Notes under the pieces: generated by a model
Databases searched by the model: none
Told to the model about the DNA's origin: nothing
What the model saw: the letters and a program-made list of their open reading frames with translations, nothing else
NCBI GenBank assembly: GCA_034226945.1
Contig: CP120460.1
Span: 496,001 to 560,000 of the forward strand
Reading direction: 5' to 3'
Length of the DNA: 64,000 nt
DNA from: Picochlorum sp. SENEW3
Lineage: Eukaryota
Part shown: piece by piece, positions 1 to 7,042 of the stretch
Layout of the letters: every line of letters starts with the position of its first letter
How positions within the stretch are numbered: the first letter of the stretch is position 1
Made by a program: the position numbers and the translations under genes

Positions 1-1730
1 GAAATGCCATTGGGTCTGGTATGCTCGAGTTGGGAGTGAAGGGAGGGAGCGATACGAGGGTTGGGCTGTATTCGCATAATAGTGTGGATTGGATGTTGGT
101 TGATTGCGCTGTTCATGCGTATGGGATGACGGCAGTGCCGTTATATGACACCCTGGGACCAGATGCTGTGGAGTATATTTCCAATCATGCTGAGCTGGCG
201 GCGATCGCGTGCTCTATTACAGTGCTTGATAAATTATATCCAGTTCTTTCATCCTGTACGACTGTCAAGCTGGTTGTTGTGTATGGGACGACGCCTCACC
301 AGAGGTTGCCGGAGAAGCCTGCTGGGTGTGGGCATGTCAGGGTGATGACATTGGATAGAGTGCAGGCCATGGGATACAAGCATCCAAAGCCGCACATGCC
401 TCCGCGGCCTGATGATATTGCATTGATTAATTATACGTCTGGGACGACTGGTGTACCGAAGGGTGCCATGTTGACGCACAGAGCTTTGATTGCAAATGTG
501 GCTGGAGCATGCATGGTGATTGACCCAATCATAGAGTCCGACACGATGGAGCACAGGCATATTTCGTATTTGCCTTTGGCGCATATTTATGAGCGATTTA
601 ATGTGATATTGATGACGTTCAAGGGTGGAGCTATAGGATTCTATAGAGGGGATGTGTTGCTGTTGTTGGAGGATGTAGAACAGCTTCAGCCCACAACATT
701 TGCATCTGTGCCGAGGTTGTACAATCGAATATACGATAAAGTCATGGCGCAAATTGAAAGTAGTAGCATCGTCGCGAAAAAATTGTTCTGGACGGCGTTT
801 AATTATAAAAAGGCGCATATTTTGAACGGCGATTTACGAGGGGGGCCTCTTGCCCCATTGTTTGATGCTCTGGTGTTTTCAAAAATTCGAGCAAAATTGG
901 GCGGGAAGATTCATATGTTATCCAGCGGATCATCACCCATTTCGAGCGATGTATTCTTATTTCTGCGAGTATGTTTTGGCCCGAATGTGCTGGAGGGGTA
1001 TGGGATGACAGAGACGGCATGCTTGATCACGTTGACATACCCAGGAGATGCCACATATGGACATGTTGGTGCACCCATTCCATCATGTGAGGTCAAGCTG
1101 GATGATATTCCAGAGATGAATTACTCAAACAAGGATACACCGTATCCTCGAGGGGAAATTTGTGTTCGAGGTCCCATTCTATTCTCCGGGTATTTGAAGA
1201 ACCCAGAGGCTACAGCAGAGACAATAGACAAGGATGGATGGTTACATACTGGCGATGTTGGTATGTGGCTCCCTGGAGGTCGGTTGAAAATTTTCGACAG
1301 GAAAAAGAGTCTGTTCAAGCTCGCGCAAGGGGAATACATATCTCCGGAAAAAATTGAAGGTGTATATGGCAGATCTCCCTTCATTTTGCAGACATTTGTG
1401 TATGGAGATTCATTACAGGCCCAGTTGGTGGCCATTGTGGTCCCTGACCCAGAATACCTGCTGCCCTGGGCAGCACAAAGAAACCTACCCCAAGATATGA
1501 ACCAGCTCTGCGCCAACTCGCACGTCTCTGCAGCCATATTTAAGAGCATGCAAGAAGAAGCCAGATCCGCTGGGCTGAAAGGATTTGAACGGGCTGCTGC
1601 AATTCGCCTCTGGGCAGAGCCATTGAGTGTGGAGAATGGCCTCTTGACCCCAACATTCAAGGTGAAGCGTCCTCAGGCCAAGGCTGTCTTTGAACAATTA
1701 ATTAATGAAATGTATGCGTCACTTTCATAA
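1..1730 (+). CDS. Long-chain acyl-CoA synthetase (LACS), 5' end probably outside the window
   Basis: AMP-binding motifs YTSGTTGVPKG and GYGMTE, and the FACS signature DGWLHTGDVG...DRKKSLFKLAQGEY. The frame is open back to the window start. Stop at 1730. Confidence 0.93.
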   Translation, partial: NAIGSGMLELGVKGGSDTRVGLYSHNSVDWMLVDCAVHAYGMTAVPLYDTLGPDAVEYISNHAELAAIACSITVLDKLYPVLSSCTTVKLVVVYGTTPHQRLPEKPAGCGHVRVMTLDRVQAMGYKHPKPHMPPRPDDIALINYTSGTTGVPKGAMLTHRALIANVAGACMVIDPIIESDTMEHRHISYLPLAHIYERFNVILMTFKGGAIGFYRGDVLLLLEDVEQLQPTTFASVPRLYNRIYDKVMAQIESSSIVAKKLFWTAFNYKKAHILNGDLRGGPLAPLFDALVFSKIRAKLGGKIHMLSSGSSPISSDVFLFLRVCFGPNVLEGYGMTETACLITLTYPGDATYGHVGAPIPSCEVKLDDIPEMNYSNKDTPYPRGEICVRGPILFSGYLKNPEATAETIDKDGWLHTGDVGMWLPGGRLKIFDRKKSLFKLAQGEYISPEKIEGVYGRSPFILQTFVYGDSLQAQLVAIVVPDPEYLLPWAAQRNLPQDMNQLCANSHVSAAIFKSMQEEARSAGLKGFERAAAIRLWAEPLSVENGLLTPTFKVKRPQAKAVFEQLINEMYASLS

Positions 1731-1748
1731 TTCGTGTAATAGATCAGC

Positions 1749-4700
1749 ATGGTATCCCTATCGTACGAGGAAGTTTTGAACTGTTGCGCGTCAAAGTCAT
1801 TTGCGCAACGATTAGCCTCGCATTCTCCATTTCAGGACGAAGCAGAGGTTTTTAAGATATCTAGAGATATTTGGTGGACTGAGGTATGCCGTATAATGCA
1901 ATTACAGCACTGCGGGTGTCAAATGACACAACCCTTGTCTGCTGCAGTTGTCCATTTTTGACTGGCTCGAGGCTTTTCAAGCACACCCAAGTATAGGTGA
2001 GCAAGCGAGTGGCGAGGGTTTGGGCAGTGCATTCAGTGCTGTGGAGCAGTCGATGGCCGCGCAGACGGCAGATGAGAGTCTCAAGGAGGTAGAGTTGCTT
2101 TGATTGCCTTTTTCCATGCGCCCTCCCATGACAGCAGCCGTGGTTGATCATATGCAGGAGCTTGCTCATTGGAATGCCAAGTATAAACAGAAGTTTGGTC
2201 ACGTCTTTTTGATATTCGCACAAGGAAGGTCATCACGTGAGATATTATCAGAACTGTGCAAAAGGTATGTGTGTATTTCTTCTTACATGTGTGCATCATG
2301 ACACAAGACAGACAGCGAGAGAGAGTACATTGGAACGACACAAATTTACCACGTGATAAGGATTGGTGGTGTTTAGAAACACCATGATGGGTTGACAAAA
2401 AGTCAAACATACCTGTGACAGAGCAATTCATATCACACAGTAGTGTACCTGCAACAAAACATGGTGAGACGCAAAAAACACAGAGAGACAACGCCAAAAT
2501 ATACAATGGTACATCAAAGGATGATTAACGAATATTGACAGTACGGAGCAAAGAGGAGCTCATCCCGGACGCAGCCTTTGCAACAGATTTGCCCTGAGAA
2601 GATCTAGAGGAGGATCCGTCACCAAAGCATTTCCAGAATCTCAGGGTTTCATCAGCAGCGGCAGAGGCCACAGTTGTTCCATCTGGAGACTGTGCCAAAT
2701 GAAGCACACGAGATGTGTGTCCATTCATCTCTGCCACCTTTGCCAAGGAAGGATACTTCCAAAGGCAAAGCTGATTCTGAGAAAATCCATGAGAGGAGAG
2801 AATCTCCTTCTCATGACGATTCCACTGTAGGGCACATACCTGAGATCCAGTATCAATGGAGTTCAAGCATACACCCGTTGTCGTGTTCCAGAATTTAATG
2901 CTACGGTCCGCTGTTCCTCCTCCACTTGCCAAAAGGTTGGACTGGAATGGGCACCAAGCAAGGGCTTTGACTGCAGCCTGATGGTCTGTAAGGGTATGGG
3001 TGGGTCCATCATGACGAGCATCCCAAATCATCAACATATTGTCGTTTCCTCCGGATGCAAGCTGTGACCCACTTGGAGACCATTTCAAGCCGCAAACCTC
3101 TTGCTGATGTCCTCGCAGAGTCTTCACAATATGATCCCTGACTCTCACGTCATGATGGATAATTGTGCTGTCTCTACTTCCAGAGCTGAGAGTGTGATTA
3201 TTCCAAGACAGAGAAGAAACACGAGATGAATGCCCTCCCAGGTTTCTAATTGGACGTAATCTCTCAGCATCCCAGATTTGGCAATTGTTATCAGAAAAGC
3301 CCACCGCAATGTGCCTTCCATCGCCTGCCCAGTTCACACTGGTCACATAGGAATCATTCTCAGTTGCAAGCAACTGCTGAATATCTCCTCCTGATGCATT
3401 CCAGAGATACACTGTTTGGCTCAAGGCAATGGCCACCTTGTTCGATGACCCCCAGTCCATCAGATTGAGATAATAATCATCAACCAGGTCTGGAGCATCA
3501 AGGATACGGTCTGGCTGCGATGGTACTGCTCTGAACTTCTTCGATGACTTCATATCTGTTGCATTAGCAGAGTACAATGCTGCCAAATGACTGGAATGTC
3601 CCTCTGGTGGGGCAGGGGCCTTCTGCTTGAATGCAAGCACACGAGCAGAGGCATCGGTTCCCAGATTCGCGGCAAGCTGTTTCTTATACTCCTGCACAAA
3701 TGGTACGTATTATATTATCGTATATGGCATCCAACACGGCATCAATGAGCAAGATCATGAGCACACACCTTGCTTGGAGACGAAGCCACATTCTGCTGAG
3801 TATTCTCAACATCCCTCATCTCTAATGCGATATTGTACTGTGAACTATCCAGGTTGCTCGCACTCCTATTAGGAATGAAGCGGTCCATCTGCACGTGCGT
3901 CATACGACTGGGTGAGAATGCTTCAATCAACAAACAGATCTGGACATGCCAACACTCGGGAGGACGAACAGACACAATTGCCCATGCTCTCCCTTGAAAA
4001 GCATAAAAGTAATTAATTACGTACCTTGGAAGATGTCCTGGATGGCGCAGCAAACTTTTGGGGGGTTGCCGAACTCGTGGGCACCCTCATCGGAGATGCG
4101 ATCGAGGAAGACATTCTGATACGCTAAAGAATACAAACTATGCTACCTAAAATCGATATAAATATCGAAAGAAAGAAGTAGAGTACCTAAGGATACGTGA
4201 TATAAAATCTTTGGGAAAACAAAGAAGGGCTTCGACGGTTGCTCCACCTGTCTATAAACCAATCCAAATGATCCAGGGTCAAAACAGTGTGTATCCTTGG
4301 CCATCCCACCATTAGTCTCTCTCATCCTCTCATTGCTTGGGCATGGATGTGTCTTTTTTTTTCTTGAAAACAGTCAATTGCATCATTCAATTGCCTTGTA
4401 TCGTCATATTCTGGCGTGGTGATTCCTTTCGTTTGTCTGATCATTTCAAGGCACCATATTTTGTACACTACCAATGAATGATTCTACTTGATGATGATTG
4501 ATTGATGCAGGTATGTCAATACAGCAGACGTTGAATTACGCCATGCTGCCTTTGAGCAGCAAAAGATTACAGAAAAGAGACTCAAGGATACATTTGCTCG
4601 CCAGGAGGCGCCTCTCGACAGCAACAGCGTTGTTGATAGGAGGGCTGCCAACTTGGCATCTCAACTTGGCTCCACCAGCAAAACAGGTACGCGCATTCTT

Positions 4701-5258
4701 TATTTTTTTCTTGTCTCTATCACTCCTTGAATATATATATATCATTTTCTAATTATTATGAGTCTTGTCATTCCAGGACAATCTGTCTCAAAGCAGAAGA
4801 AGACATCACCAATCACCACCCATGTCTTGGACACTTGCAATGGAAGACCAGCCTCAGGAGTCTCTATCGATCTCGACTACTGTTCATCCTCATCTCCACA
4901 CACATGGATACCTATAGGAAGAGGAAAAACCAACAGTGACGGCAGAGTAGCCAATCTTTTGCCATCTGATGCATCACCTCAACCAGGATGGTACTGCCTT
5001 ACGTTCCATGTGGGCGAGTATGTGGAACAGTGTCGAATCGAGAATCCAACCTTCTTTCGCGACGCCTCATTTTACCCATTTGTGAAGATTCATTTCAGTA
5101 TCAGACAGGATCAGGTGCGTATATATCACTCGTGTGCCATGGTGAATGTCTACCGAGACTCATCCATCCAAACTGATCATCATGTGCAGGTCAACCAGCA
5201 TTTCCACGTCCCATTGACATGGAACCCATTCGGGTATTCCACCTACAGAGGATCCTGA
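1749..5258 (+). CDS. TTL: Bifunctional OHCU decarboxylase / 5-hydroxyisourate hydrolase (transthyretin-like, S-allantoin synthase), 6 exons
   Basis: Exons 1749-1883, 1948-2088, 2158-2264, 4511-4686, 4777-5114 and 5190-5258 are all GT-AG and phase-compatible. Decarboxylase motifs WLEAFQAHPSIG, YKQKFGHVFLIFA and RYVNTADVELRHAAFEQQKITEKRL. Hydrolase motifs ITTHVLDT, HFHVPL and C-terminal YRGS. Confidence 0.92.
2265..4510 (+). other. Long (2246 nt) intron 3 of TTL, containing CDC20 on the opposite strand
   Basis: Donor AG|GTATGT at 2265 and acceptor TGCAG at 4510. Joining them gives ...ELCK-R-YVNTADVEL..., which completes the OHCU decarboxylase domain. Confidence 0.88.
2525..4114 (-). CDS. CDC20: APC/C activator CDC20 (WD40), 3 exons
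   Basis: Exons 4114-4025, 3888-3769 and 3691-2525. C-box DRFIP, KILR-like RVLAFKQK, RILDAPDLVDDYYLNL, WD40 repeats and a C-terminal IR tail. Confidence 0.95.
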
Positions 5259-5411
5259 CACATATTAAATTCCAAATACTTTCAGACCACCATTGTCAAG
5301 GACGCAGTATCATAGTATTTGTTGTTGAGAAACACCTGTAAATAAATAGCGATACAACGTTGTATACACAATTGATGCTGAATACACCGAGAAGCATTAT
5401 TCTCTTCTAGT

Positions 5412-7042
5412 ATGTCATATAGTAAGGGTTTCATCAATGGGGAAGAGCAGGAGGAGAAGAAGAAGAAGAAGAGCAAGGCACACGACAACGACAGTCCTCC
5501 GGACTCGCCGACGAGTCGGTTGCTCAATCGGATTGCAGAGATTAAATTAGATAGTGAAGAGGATTTTGGATCGTCTCCTGATAGGAAATTTAGTTATGTG
5601 GAGGACATTGCTCGGAATCCAAAAATTTCTCAGGCTGCCCGGTTGGAGTCCGTGTCTGGTCAGGCGACCCCAACTGCTGGGTTGGATGATAGCCTGGCCT
5701 TTCTCTCTCATGACCCAGATATCGATAGACAGAAGGAAGTCTGTGAGGCTCTTGACAGGGATACGGAATTGGAGAGTCGATTGAATCAGGAGATGGCGAG
5801 TGTTGTGATTTCAAGAATTCAGTCAGGAAGATCATCTGCAGAGAAGATTCTGTCCGTGTTGCAGGCGTTTGCGTCGGCGAATAGATCGTATGGAAAATCT
5901 TTGAGTACAATAGGGGGGATGGAGCTAATAGGGGATGCGGATGGGGCGACGCTGAGGGATGCATTGGCAGACTTTGTGCAACTACCCATGGTATGTGTGT
6001 GTGACCAGTCATGGTGATGAGCATTTCCGTCTCGATGTGTATATATATTTATATACATGTATGATCTTGTTGTATGCAGATGGTTGGGGATAGTCATGAT
6101 AGAGCGTCGCATGCGTCGCAACCGTCGATTAATTTGGTGCGCGACCTGGTAGGAAAGCTCCGAGAGGCGTGTGCCGAGCTGAAGCAAGGGGCTTTGAAGG
6201 TGCAGACAGACGTTGACTTGAGCATGAAGGCTCTTCGGCAGTCTGTTGTCGCGCATAGAGATGTATGTAAATCTTTTGATGCGTTGGCGTTGTCGAAGAA
6301 TACAAAGTTTACCTCGAAATCCCGGCAGGTGGAATCTGATCCATGGATTGCAGAAGGGCGGTTGGTTGAGAGGCAAGCTGCACTGAGAATCGCGCAGGCG
6401 AATCAGAGAAAGTATTTGGCTGGAGCTTTCCGGCGTGTTGGAGAGCTTGAACGACAAAGAATTAGTGTCACGAAAATGGCATTGACCAATTGTGTAGAAC
6501 TGATGGCGAGTTCCATATCTCTTGAAATACGAGAGCAATCAGATTCTGCCCTTGGGAGTCTAGGGGCTGTTGATGGAGAATCAGATTTGGATTCGTTTGC
6601 AAGCATGGCTGCGGATAGTACCAAAGGTGGAGAGGTGTTATCGAGACGTCAATCCCAAATGATTCAATATTTATGGCGTCAGCTGGAAGGGAGTGTGGAT
6701 GTCATTAGGCAGGGGCGTGTGCGGCGAATGGACTCGAGAAGGGTGTGGGTAGCTGGCTATGCGGTGCTTACTCGAGCAGGCTTTTTACATTGGTTTACTA
6801 CAAATGACAGTACTGAAGATAGAATGTGGGTCTTCTCTGGTGGTCCAGAATGCAGTATTCACCTTTCCAGGTGTGAATTCGAGCTTGGTGATGCCCCGTC
6901 CTGGAAACTGAAGGAGACAGCATCCATGTCATGGCTGAGTGGAAAGACAGTCCACCAAACATACAGTACAGATGATATCGATGCATGCATGGATTGGACA
7001 GCAGATTTAAAAGAAATGATATCCATGTATAAAATACAGTAA
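5412..7042 (+). CDS. BAR-like helical domain plus C-terminal PH domain protein (Slm1-like architecture)
   Basis: Exons 5412-5990 and 6080-7042. A long helical region is followed by PH-like VIRQGRVRR...WVAGYAVLTRAGFLHWF and a terminal helix containing W (MDWTADLKEMI). Confidence 0.6.

Follow-up and report, generated by a model that had tools for sequence, protein, structure and literature searches.

How does a complete gene come to lie, and to stay, inside an intron of another gene in a tiny marine green alga whose introns are very short? The locus that poses this question occupies positions 1749 to 5258 of a 64,000-nt stretch of DNA from Picochlorum sp. SENEW3 (assembly GCA_034226945.1, contig CP120460.1, positions 496,001 to 560,000 of the forward strand), called the window below. 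It consists of a complete CDC20 gene inverted inside one oversized intron of the gene for TTL (allantoin synthase, also ALNS), a protein of purine breakdown with an OHCU decarboxylase and a HIU hydrolase domain. CDC20 is a cell-division protein, a co-activator of the anaphase-promoting complex (APC/C). We consider it very probable that this is a real and conserved host-nested gene pair of a Picochlorum-like green alga, a layout which would serve no dedicated regulatory purpose and would persist because it is locked in place.

Layout of the two genes

Over its first 7 kb the window is eukaryotic DNA, with GT..AG introns. Six plus-strand exons of TTL form one open frame of 966 nt (321 aa, no internal stop, ending YRGS) and three minus-strand exons encode a CDC20 protein of 458 aa, also without internal stop. 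The entire CDC20 coding sequence (2525-4114, minus strand) is enclosed by the single TTL intron 3 (2265-4510, plus strand), a GT..AG intron of 2246 nt; the stop codon of CDC20 lies 260 nt from the donor of this intron and the ATG 396 nt from its acceptor. The other TTL introns measure 64, 69, 90 and 75 nt and those of CDC20 136 and 77 nt (median of the six, 76); intron 3 is about 30 times the size of the other introns in both genes. In three Picochlorum genomes mean intron lengths of 88, 101 and 133 bp are given (PMC6141220, of which Table 1 is used here). An earlier note, made from the sequence of the window alone, had placed the end of TTL exon 3 at 2264 and its in-phase restart at 4511, had described the 2246-nt gap as some 30 times the usual intron, and had located within it a three-exon CDC20 from 4114 to 2525 with about 400 nt upstream and about 260 nt downstream. 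Every coordinate was reproduced, with exact flanks of 396 and 260 nt and six other introns of 64-136 nt. The features are as follows (X2 and X7 are sequencing runs, and L002, L004 and L005 metagenome loci, both taken up below).

1749..1883, plus strand: TTL/ALNS exon 1, ATG at 1749, 45 codons; the start Met is aligned with the Met of bifunctional relatives; X2 joint 1881>1946, GT..AG.
1948..2088, plus strand: TTL exon 2, OHCU decarboxylase, Pfam profile positions 46-94 (PF09349, 25.3 bits); joints on both sides in X2 record 10.
2158..2264, plus strand: TTL exon 3, OHCU decarboxylase, profile positions 91-127 of 155 (PF09349, 41.4 bits, E=2.7e-10); ends two bases into an Arg codon; donor AAAAG|GTATGT.
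2265..4510, plus strand: TTL intron 3, the host intron, 2246 nt; joint 2262>4509 (cut +2) in X2 record 10, depth 88; homologous introns in L002, L004 and L005.
4511..4686, plus strand: TTL exon 4, end of the OHCU decarboxylase and linker with a PTS2-like nonapeptide (residues 172-180); profile of 24 relatives; joint 4683>4774.
4777..5114, plus strand: TTL exon 5, HIU hydrolase/transthyretin-like domain (PF00576, E=1.1e-32); RNA joints; 96% identity to a protein of Picochlorum sp. BPE23.
5190..5258, plus strand: TTL exon 6, ending …YRGS and a stop codon; RNA joint 5111>5187; YRGS end as in HIU hydrolases of the PDB.
4025..4114, minus strand: CDC20 exon 1, ATG at 4114; joint 3888>4025, CT..AC, in X2 and X7.
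3769..3888, minus strand: CDC20 exon 2, with the C-box DRFIPNR at residue 32 (pattern match); joints on both sides in X2 and X7.
2525..3691, minus strand: CDC20 exon 3, seven-blade WD40 propeller (Pfam WD40_CDC20-Fz), IR tail, stop codon 2527-2525.
2281..2524, minus strand: CDC20 3′ untranslated region (3′UTR), with TGTAA at 2287-2283; X2 record 11 covers 2303-3044 at one depth.
4115..4510, minus strand: CDC20 5′UTR and upstream region, presumed to hold its own promoter; X2 depth 0 in bins 4140-4393; 26-nt block in common with L002.
3703..3852, plus strand: minor GT..AG splice, antisense to CDC20 intron 2 and exon 2; X2 joint 3701>3852 (cut +1), skipping 150 nt, depth 17.9, side 30.

The nested protein matches Pfam WD40_CDC20-Fz (PF24807) over the full length of that profile (positions 1-292 of 292, E=2.5e-131, 437.8 bits against a cut-off of 200). 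Its N-terminal C-box (DRFIPNR, residue 32) and C-terminal IR are motifs of CDC20-type co-activators. The KEN box, found in the N-terminal region of CDC20, varies among species, and a motif search of the 458-aa model returned no KEN tripeptide. In a comparison with PDB chains the protein reaches 451 bits for human CDC20 and 381 for S. pombe Slp1, as against 350 for FZR1 and 335 for yeast CDH1; with scores higher for CDC20/Slp1 by about 100 bits, the gene product stands on the CDC20 side of the family and not with CDH1/FZR1, a placement by bit scores rather than by a tree. It resembles CDC20/Fizzy/Slp1 (PDB 4GGA, 5G04, 4AEZ) in its WD40 propeller, C-box and IR tail but differs in lacking KEN and in that its gene sits in the intron of another.

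One TTL messenger RNA across the host intron

TTL exon 3 ends at 2264 (…CAAAAG|GTATGT) and the frame restarts at 4511 after …TGATGCAG|, the codon AG|G giving Arg, followed by YVNTADVELRH…. A transcript across 2264/4511 was sought by comparing four public runs (X1, X2, X7 and X15) with positions 1600-5400, and one X2 contig, with 30 letters on the far side, carries the joint; the cover and depth of such contigs can neither rank expression nor prove absence. X2 behaves as RNA, with eight canonical joints and no cover over 4140-4393, unlike CDC20 exon 1 and TTL exon 4 on either side of that stretch, which are covered. Its record 10 (765 nt, depth 88) carries the joints 1881>1946, 2086>2156 and 2262>4509, all GT..AG, and the last skips exactly 2246 nt; positions 31-137 of the record are exon 3 and positions 1-30 the far side, with no extra letters between them. 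Both downstream TTL joints are found in record 14 (2308 nt, depth 135), which starts at 4509. The two records share exactly 30 letters and part two letters (AG) before exon 4, as would be expected of an assembly-graph branch between spliced and unspliced paths. The TTL mRNA is formed by pairing the donor at 2264/2265 with the acceptor at 4510/4511.

CDC20 has transcription and splicing of its own on the minus strand. Its two introns are removed, with CT..AC joints 3690>3768 and 3888>4025, in X2 and in X7, a recorded metatranscriptome from a study other than that of X2, and one 679-nt X7 contig spans CDC20 from exon 3 to a point 35 nt ahead of the ATG. X7 has no contigs over TTL exons 1-5, where missing cover is not proof of absence, and the depths of TTL and CDC20 contigs differ, depth being no ranking of expression.

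Several observations weigh against reading the plus-strand exons as one TTL gene with a neutral nest. The far side of the key joint, at 30 letters, falls one short of the threshold for bridging records (at least 31 letters on the shorter side), and 8 of these letters fit either side, as exon 4 and the intron both begin GTATGT. The joint comes from a single run, X2, which is labelled RNA by guess and derives from a near-identical strain, not necessarily that of the window; moreover its contigs carry neither strand nor abundance, so that the share of correctly spliced TTL is not readable from them. The 58-aa exon-4 peptide, compared by BLASTP with two bifunctional relatives, matched at the wrong places (E=15 and E=0.48), Pfam returned no family at E<=1 for the exon-4 region 4506-4730, and a phmmer search of the PDB with the BPE23 protein gave matches to the HIUase part only, with no OHCU decarboxylase chain among the matches listed (60 of 158). 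Finally, the neutral account of the nest's persistence, set out in the last section, is an inference.

As the single-sequence tests of the exon-4 peptide had failed, a profile of 297 positions was used, built from 24 full-length relatives, namely a 314-aa bifunctional query and 23 sequences picked from 150 matches listed, each chosen for a match spanning nearly the whole query in one stretch. The spliced TTL model aligns with this profile in a single alignment over positions 16-297 (322.7 bits). Exons 1-3 by themselves cover positions 16-136 (119.3 bits), exon 4 alone positions 141-173 (18.7 bits, E=5.5e-8 for one comparison), exons 4-6 positions 141-297 (184.3 bits) and exons 5-6 positions 178-297 (161.4 bits), the addition of exon 4 to exons 5-6 gaining 23 bits. 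The junction is ungapped in a multiple alignment of spliced TTL with three bifunctional relatives. The OHCU decarboxylase is complete, with Pfam positions 46-127 of 155 supplied by exons 2-3 and the rest by exon 4 (positions 141-173 of the 24-relative profile). To judge from these alignments, exon 4 furnishes the missing end of this domain together with the inter-domain linker.

The public annotation presents the gene differently. In the nearest named relative, Picochlorum sp. BPE23, the corresponding entry is a 202-aa "hypothetical protein" with the transthyretin domain as its only Pfam domain; the TTL exon-5 peptide is 96% identical to it, and it begins with eight residues unrelated to the family, followed by exon 4 onward. 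Within the window, exon 4 offers no in-frame start codon. Public proteins uniting the two TTL halves were sought without success (the exon-5 search gave four proteins among 126 candidates, of which the close ones were not full length), as was an annotated upstream half: the exon-2 search gave, among 12 candidates, a single 91-aa protein, rejected as a gene model because it is a run-through open reading frame of a related strain. The expectation of the earlier note that gene callers would split TTL in two is thus correct for the downstream half, annotated alone in BPE23; for the upstream half these searches gave no separate annotation. The layout defeats gene callers, and since BPE23 annotates the downstream half only, surveys of purine catabolism could score the fused enzyme as missing or truncated.

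This annotation might suggest that the locus holds three separate genes, a short OHCU-decarboxylase-like gene, CDC20 and a HIU hydrolase gene, with the 2264/4511 join rare or artefactual. The BPE23 model, in which the downstream part is a gene of its own, speaks for such a division, as do the mere 30 letters on the far side of the junction contig and the existence in chlorophytes of either a fused ALNS or separate HIUH and OHCUD genes, the fused proteins carrying a PTS2 between the domains (described in an excerpt of PMC13691922). Against it, exon 3 breaks off with the OHCU decarboxylase domain unfinished, at position 127 of the 155 in the Pfam profile, and the missing end is encoded beside the linker and the HIUase, exactly as in fused relatives. 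The unspliced frame running on from exon 3 meets a stop codon after 12 codons, exon 4 brings no in-frame start codon, and the BPE23 model opens with its eight unrelated residues. In addition, the junction contig is as deep (88) as the cover over TTL exons 1-3, and donor, acceptor and phase are kept in two other lineages. A three-gene structure is excluded by the break within the domain, together with the joint in RNA and the splice sites kept between lineages; we would grant it only a very slight chance, and retain a single TTL gene.

Conservation of the nest

Metagenome contigs were scanned with the long CDC20 exon, which gave 24 loci, and these were searched by tblastn with the TTL model and three relatives. 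In all seven loci with a CDC20 identity of at least 74% (L001-L005, L022 and L024), TTL adjoins CDC20 on the opposite strand; in none of the 17 loci at 40-65% CDC20 identity was a TTL match found beside it. Seven of these 17 have at least 2 kb on both sides, four have at least 4 kb on one side and six lie on contigs of less than 2 kb; some may be CDH1-type paralogues, and together they may bound the spread of the nest only loosely.

Three of the seven loci (L002, L004 and L005) are sequenced on both sides of CDC20, and in each the N-terminal half of TTL lies past the 3′ end of CDC20 and the C-terminal half past its 5′ end. All three have canonical GT..AG borders and, as in the window, are cut after the second base of an Arg codon that precedes Tyr. 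Their host introns measure 1998 nt in L002 (GC 0.45) and 2296 nt in both L004 and L005 (GC 0.62-0.64). L003, L004, L005, L022 and L024 are taken as one GC-rich lineage because they give identical match statistics, and L002 and L001 appear to be two more. The nest, with equal codon phase, is thus present in two other metagenome lineages, while L001, whose contig ends, displays the N-terminal side only.

Could CDC20 have been misplaced inside TTL by the assembly of the window? An intron length unusual for the genus is all that favours this. X15, a DNA-like run, covers the whole stretch in a single 75,780-nt contig, with no differences and no joints; it may be the source assembly and is therefore not independent evidence. 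X1, a second DNA-like data set from a near-identical strain under another organism label, has both intron borders unspliced (2194-2471 and 4282-4834) and no joints, and independent metagenome assemblies of two other lineages have the same order on both sides of CDC20. A misassembly is in our estimate close to inconceivable. The central claim of the earlier note, a complete CDC20 on the opposite strand within an intron of a bifunctional TTL, is upheld by the RNA joint, by the profile alignment across the junction and by the conserved nest.

Between lineages CDC20 matches are 86-90% identical and TTL matches 32-55% (tblastn; some matches run across introns). The two nested partners thus diverge very unevenly. 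In base composition one lineage stands apart, with a GC content of 0.62-0.64 against 0.45 in the others.

Intron content and surroundings are less constant than the nest. In L001, the N-terminal half of TTL and CDC20 residues 11-458 are unbroken by introns; L002 is without TTL introns 2, 4 and 5; and the GC-rich lineage has no intron in the C-terminal half of TTL nor in CDC20 residues 30-458. The flanks vary by lineage in length, with 157, 260 or 370 nt from stop codon to donor and 266 or 396 nt from ATG to acceptor, and, apart from one 26-nt block, these non-coding flanks are unalignable between lineages. The upstream acyl-CoA synthetase (ACS) neighbour is kept in L002 and L001 and not in L005. 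Judged by these intron losses and by the loss of ACS synteny in relatives, the nest is older and steadier than the greater part of the two genes' introns, and than the gene order around it.

The linker varies as well. At residue 172 the window TTL carries the PTS2-like nonapeptide RAANLASQL (RAx5QL, not canonical in having Ala at position 2), L002 has RAGKLAQQL and L005 RLAKVAGHL, a canonical PTS2 (RLx5HL). These motifs were found with a relaxed pattern of our own and are putative targeting signals. In its order of OHCU decarboxylase and HIU hydrolase, with a PTS2-like nonapeptide between them, and in its YRGS end, the window TTL is like the plant and chlorophyte ALNS/TTL proteins presented in part of PMC13691922, and it differs from them in harbouring another gene inside its intron 3; in Arabidopsis, the same source places at ALNS intron 3 an alternative splicing site by which the PTS2 is kept or removed.

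Genes nested on the opposite strand in introns of a host gene are well described in animals, as excerpts of PMC11694760 (mammals), PMC12274878 (C. elegans) and PMC3192792 (transcriptional interference) attest, and the TTL/CDC20 nest is a further case of this already known kind of gene layout. It shares with the animal pairs covered there that an entire coding gene occupies one intron in opposite orientation, that host and guest are both expressed, and that polymerase has to traverse the nested gene to transcribe the host. Unlike them, this pair belongs to a streamlined alga with mean introns of about 90-130 bp, in which the host intron is an extreme outlier, and it is kept across lineages whose TTL proteins match at only 42-55% identity by tblastn. 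What is notable in this nest is the compact genome, the contrast in size and the conservation. A literature search returned no paper combining Picochlorum with nested genes and, in broader searches, none on a TTL/CDC20 pair.

Probable transcription through CDC20 and persistence of the nest

CDC20 would be driven by its own promoter within 4115-4510, as suggested by the gap in X2 cover at 4140-4393 and by the 26-nt block, which lies at 4142-4167, 28-53 nt upstream of the CDC20 ATG, and is identical at 23 of 26 positions in L002, at an equal distance from the ATG. The rest of the upstream flank does not align between the window and L002. The 5′UTR is at least 35 nt long, X7 record 19 extending to 4149. 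AACGG, the core of the plant-type mitosis-specific promoter element, has no matches in the CDC20 upstream regions of the window and L002 and two in the 624 nt upstream of L005 CDC20, with a window background of about 0.6 per kb. The 26-nt block itself contains a short inverted repeat round an A/T-rich core and is a candidate core-promoter or 5′UTR element.

At the other end, a TGTAA resembling the poly(A) signal of green algae follows the stop codon of CDC20 at a distance of 238 nt and stops 22 nt short of the edge of TTL exon 3 (2264); its L002 counterpart falls 7 nt inside TTL exon 3. X2 record 11, which covers the 3′UTR, has in addition 18 loose letters resembling an indel variant of 2281-2302. 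Since the 3′UTR contig reaches about 2281-2303 and the signals are so placed, the 3′ end of CDC20 is suggested to abut or slightly overlap the donor of TTL intron 3, although contigs cannot display RNA ends and the position is that of the TGTAA.

A polymerase making the TTL mRNA would have to read the whole CDC20 unit in antisense. The minor plus-strand splice at 3703-3852 supports such passage: no cut within the 3-letter ambiguity of its joint (3701>3852, X2 only) yields CT..AC, and it is hence not a minus-strand intron. Its donor is not kept in L002, and the splice is therefore taken as opportunistic, likely a cryptic splicing of TTL pre-mRNA inside its long intron.

Two further observations concern the same intron. 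X2 record 13 (depth 18.3, 3861-4054) is unspliced across CDC20 intron 1 (3889-4024) and represents either CDC20 RNA with a retained intron or plus-strand host pre-mRNA, contigs giving no strand. A single plus-strand TGTAA lies within the host intron, at 2987-2991, against a chance expectation of about two for 2246 nt; were it to act as a poly(A) signal, TTL transcripts would be cut short.

The head-on geometry might mean that the nest is a conserved switch between nitrogen and the cell cycle; the earlier note had suggested that transcriptional interference or antisense pairing could connect nitrogen salvage with mitotic timing, a coupling that the data here do not support. TTL induction under nitrogen limitation or purine use would drive polymerase head-on through CDC20, which we regard as unlikely; in the other direction the CDC20 3′UTR would pair with the intron-3 donor region of TTL and mask it, an equally doubtful proposal; and the sum of the two, each gene's activity lowering the other's so that division and purine-nitrogen salvage are mutually tuned by topology, is improbable to the same degree. 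The geometry does force head-on transcription over the whole CDC20 unit, plus-strand spliced RNA occurs within the body of CDC20 (depth 17.9), and the CDC20 TGTAA comes to within 22 nt of exon 3, or 7 nt inside it in L002. Cases of host and nested genes interfering with each other are on record for animals (in the parts of PMC3192792, PMC11694760 and PMC12274878 drawn on here), and a switch would explain why the nest has outlasted neighbouring synteny and most other introns. However, spliced RNAs of both TTL and CDC20 are present in run X2, the flank lengths differ between lineages and only the 26-nt block aligns, and L002 has not kept the donor of the plus-strand splice. Furthermore, a mechanical lock alone would account for the conservation. 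If topology did affect expression, it would tie nitrogen status to cell division in a simple way, and in an engineerable alga.

The reading that we prefer is that the arrangement would be a locked accident. Separating the genes would break TTL, and deleting the intron would delete the CDC20 orthologue, which is presumed essential; the nest would thus persist because rearrangement or intron loss would destroy one gene or the other. Such a lock would keep the host intron even in lineages that shed most other introns of both genes, and we infer that conservation of the nest can be explained in this way without regulation. The locus would then be a clean natural case of an unlosable intron in lineages otherwise shedding introns. 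It also shows that in a genome whose introns measure about 90-130 bp the splicing machinery copes with one of 2.2 kb.

The neighbouring genes are also closely packed. Only 18 nt separate the end of the upstream ACS gene (3-1730; AMP-binding, E=4.7e-76) from the start codon of TTL, and the TGTAA of ACS falls at 1735-1739; in L002 the gap to TTL is about 36 nt. X2 record 10 is one contig that takes in TTL exons 1-3 and at least 207 nt ahead of 1602; given this continuity and the 18-nt gap, the ACS and TTL transcripts would overlap or be co-transcribed. In the TTL 3′UTR, X2 and X7 both have a 6-nt insertion behind 5290, a strain difference. The downstream neighbour (5411-7042, plus strand) has at least two exons, with an intron at about 5990-6078, and a weak syntenic counterpart in L002 at about 30% identity.

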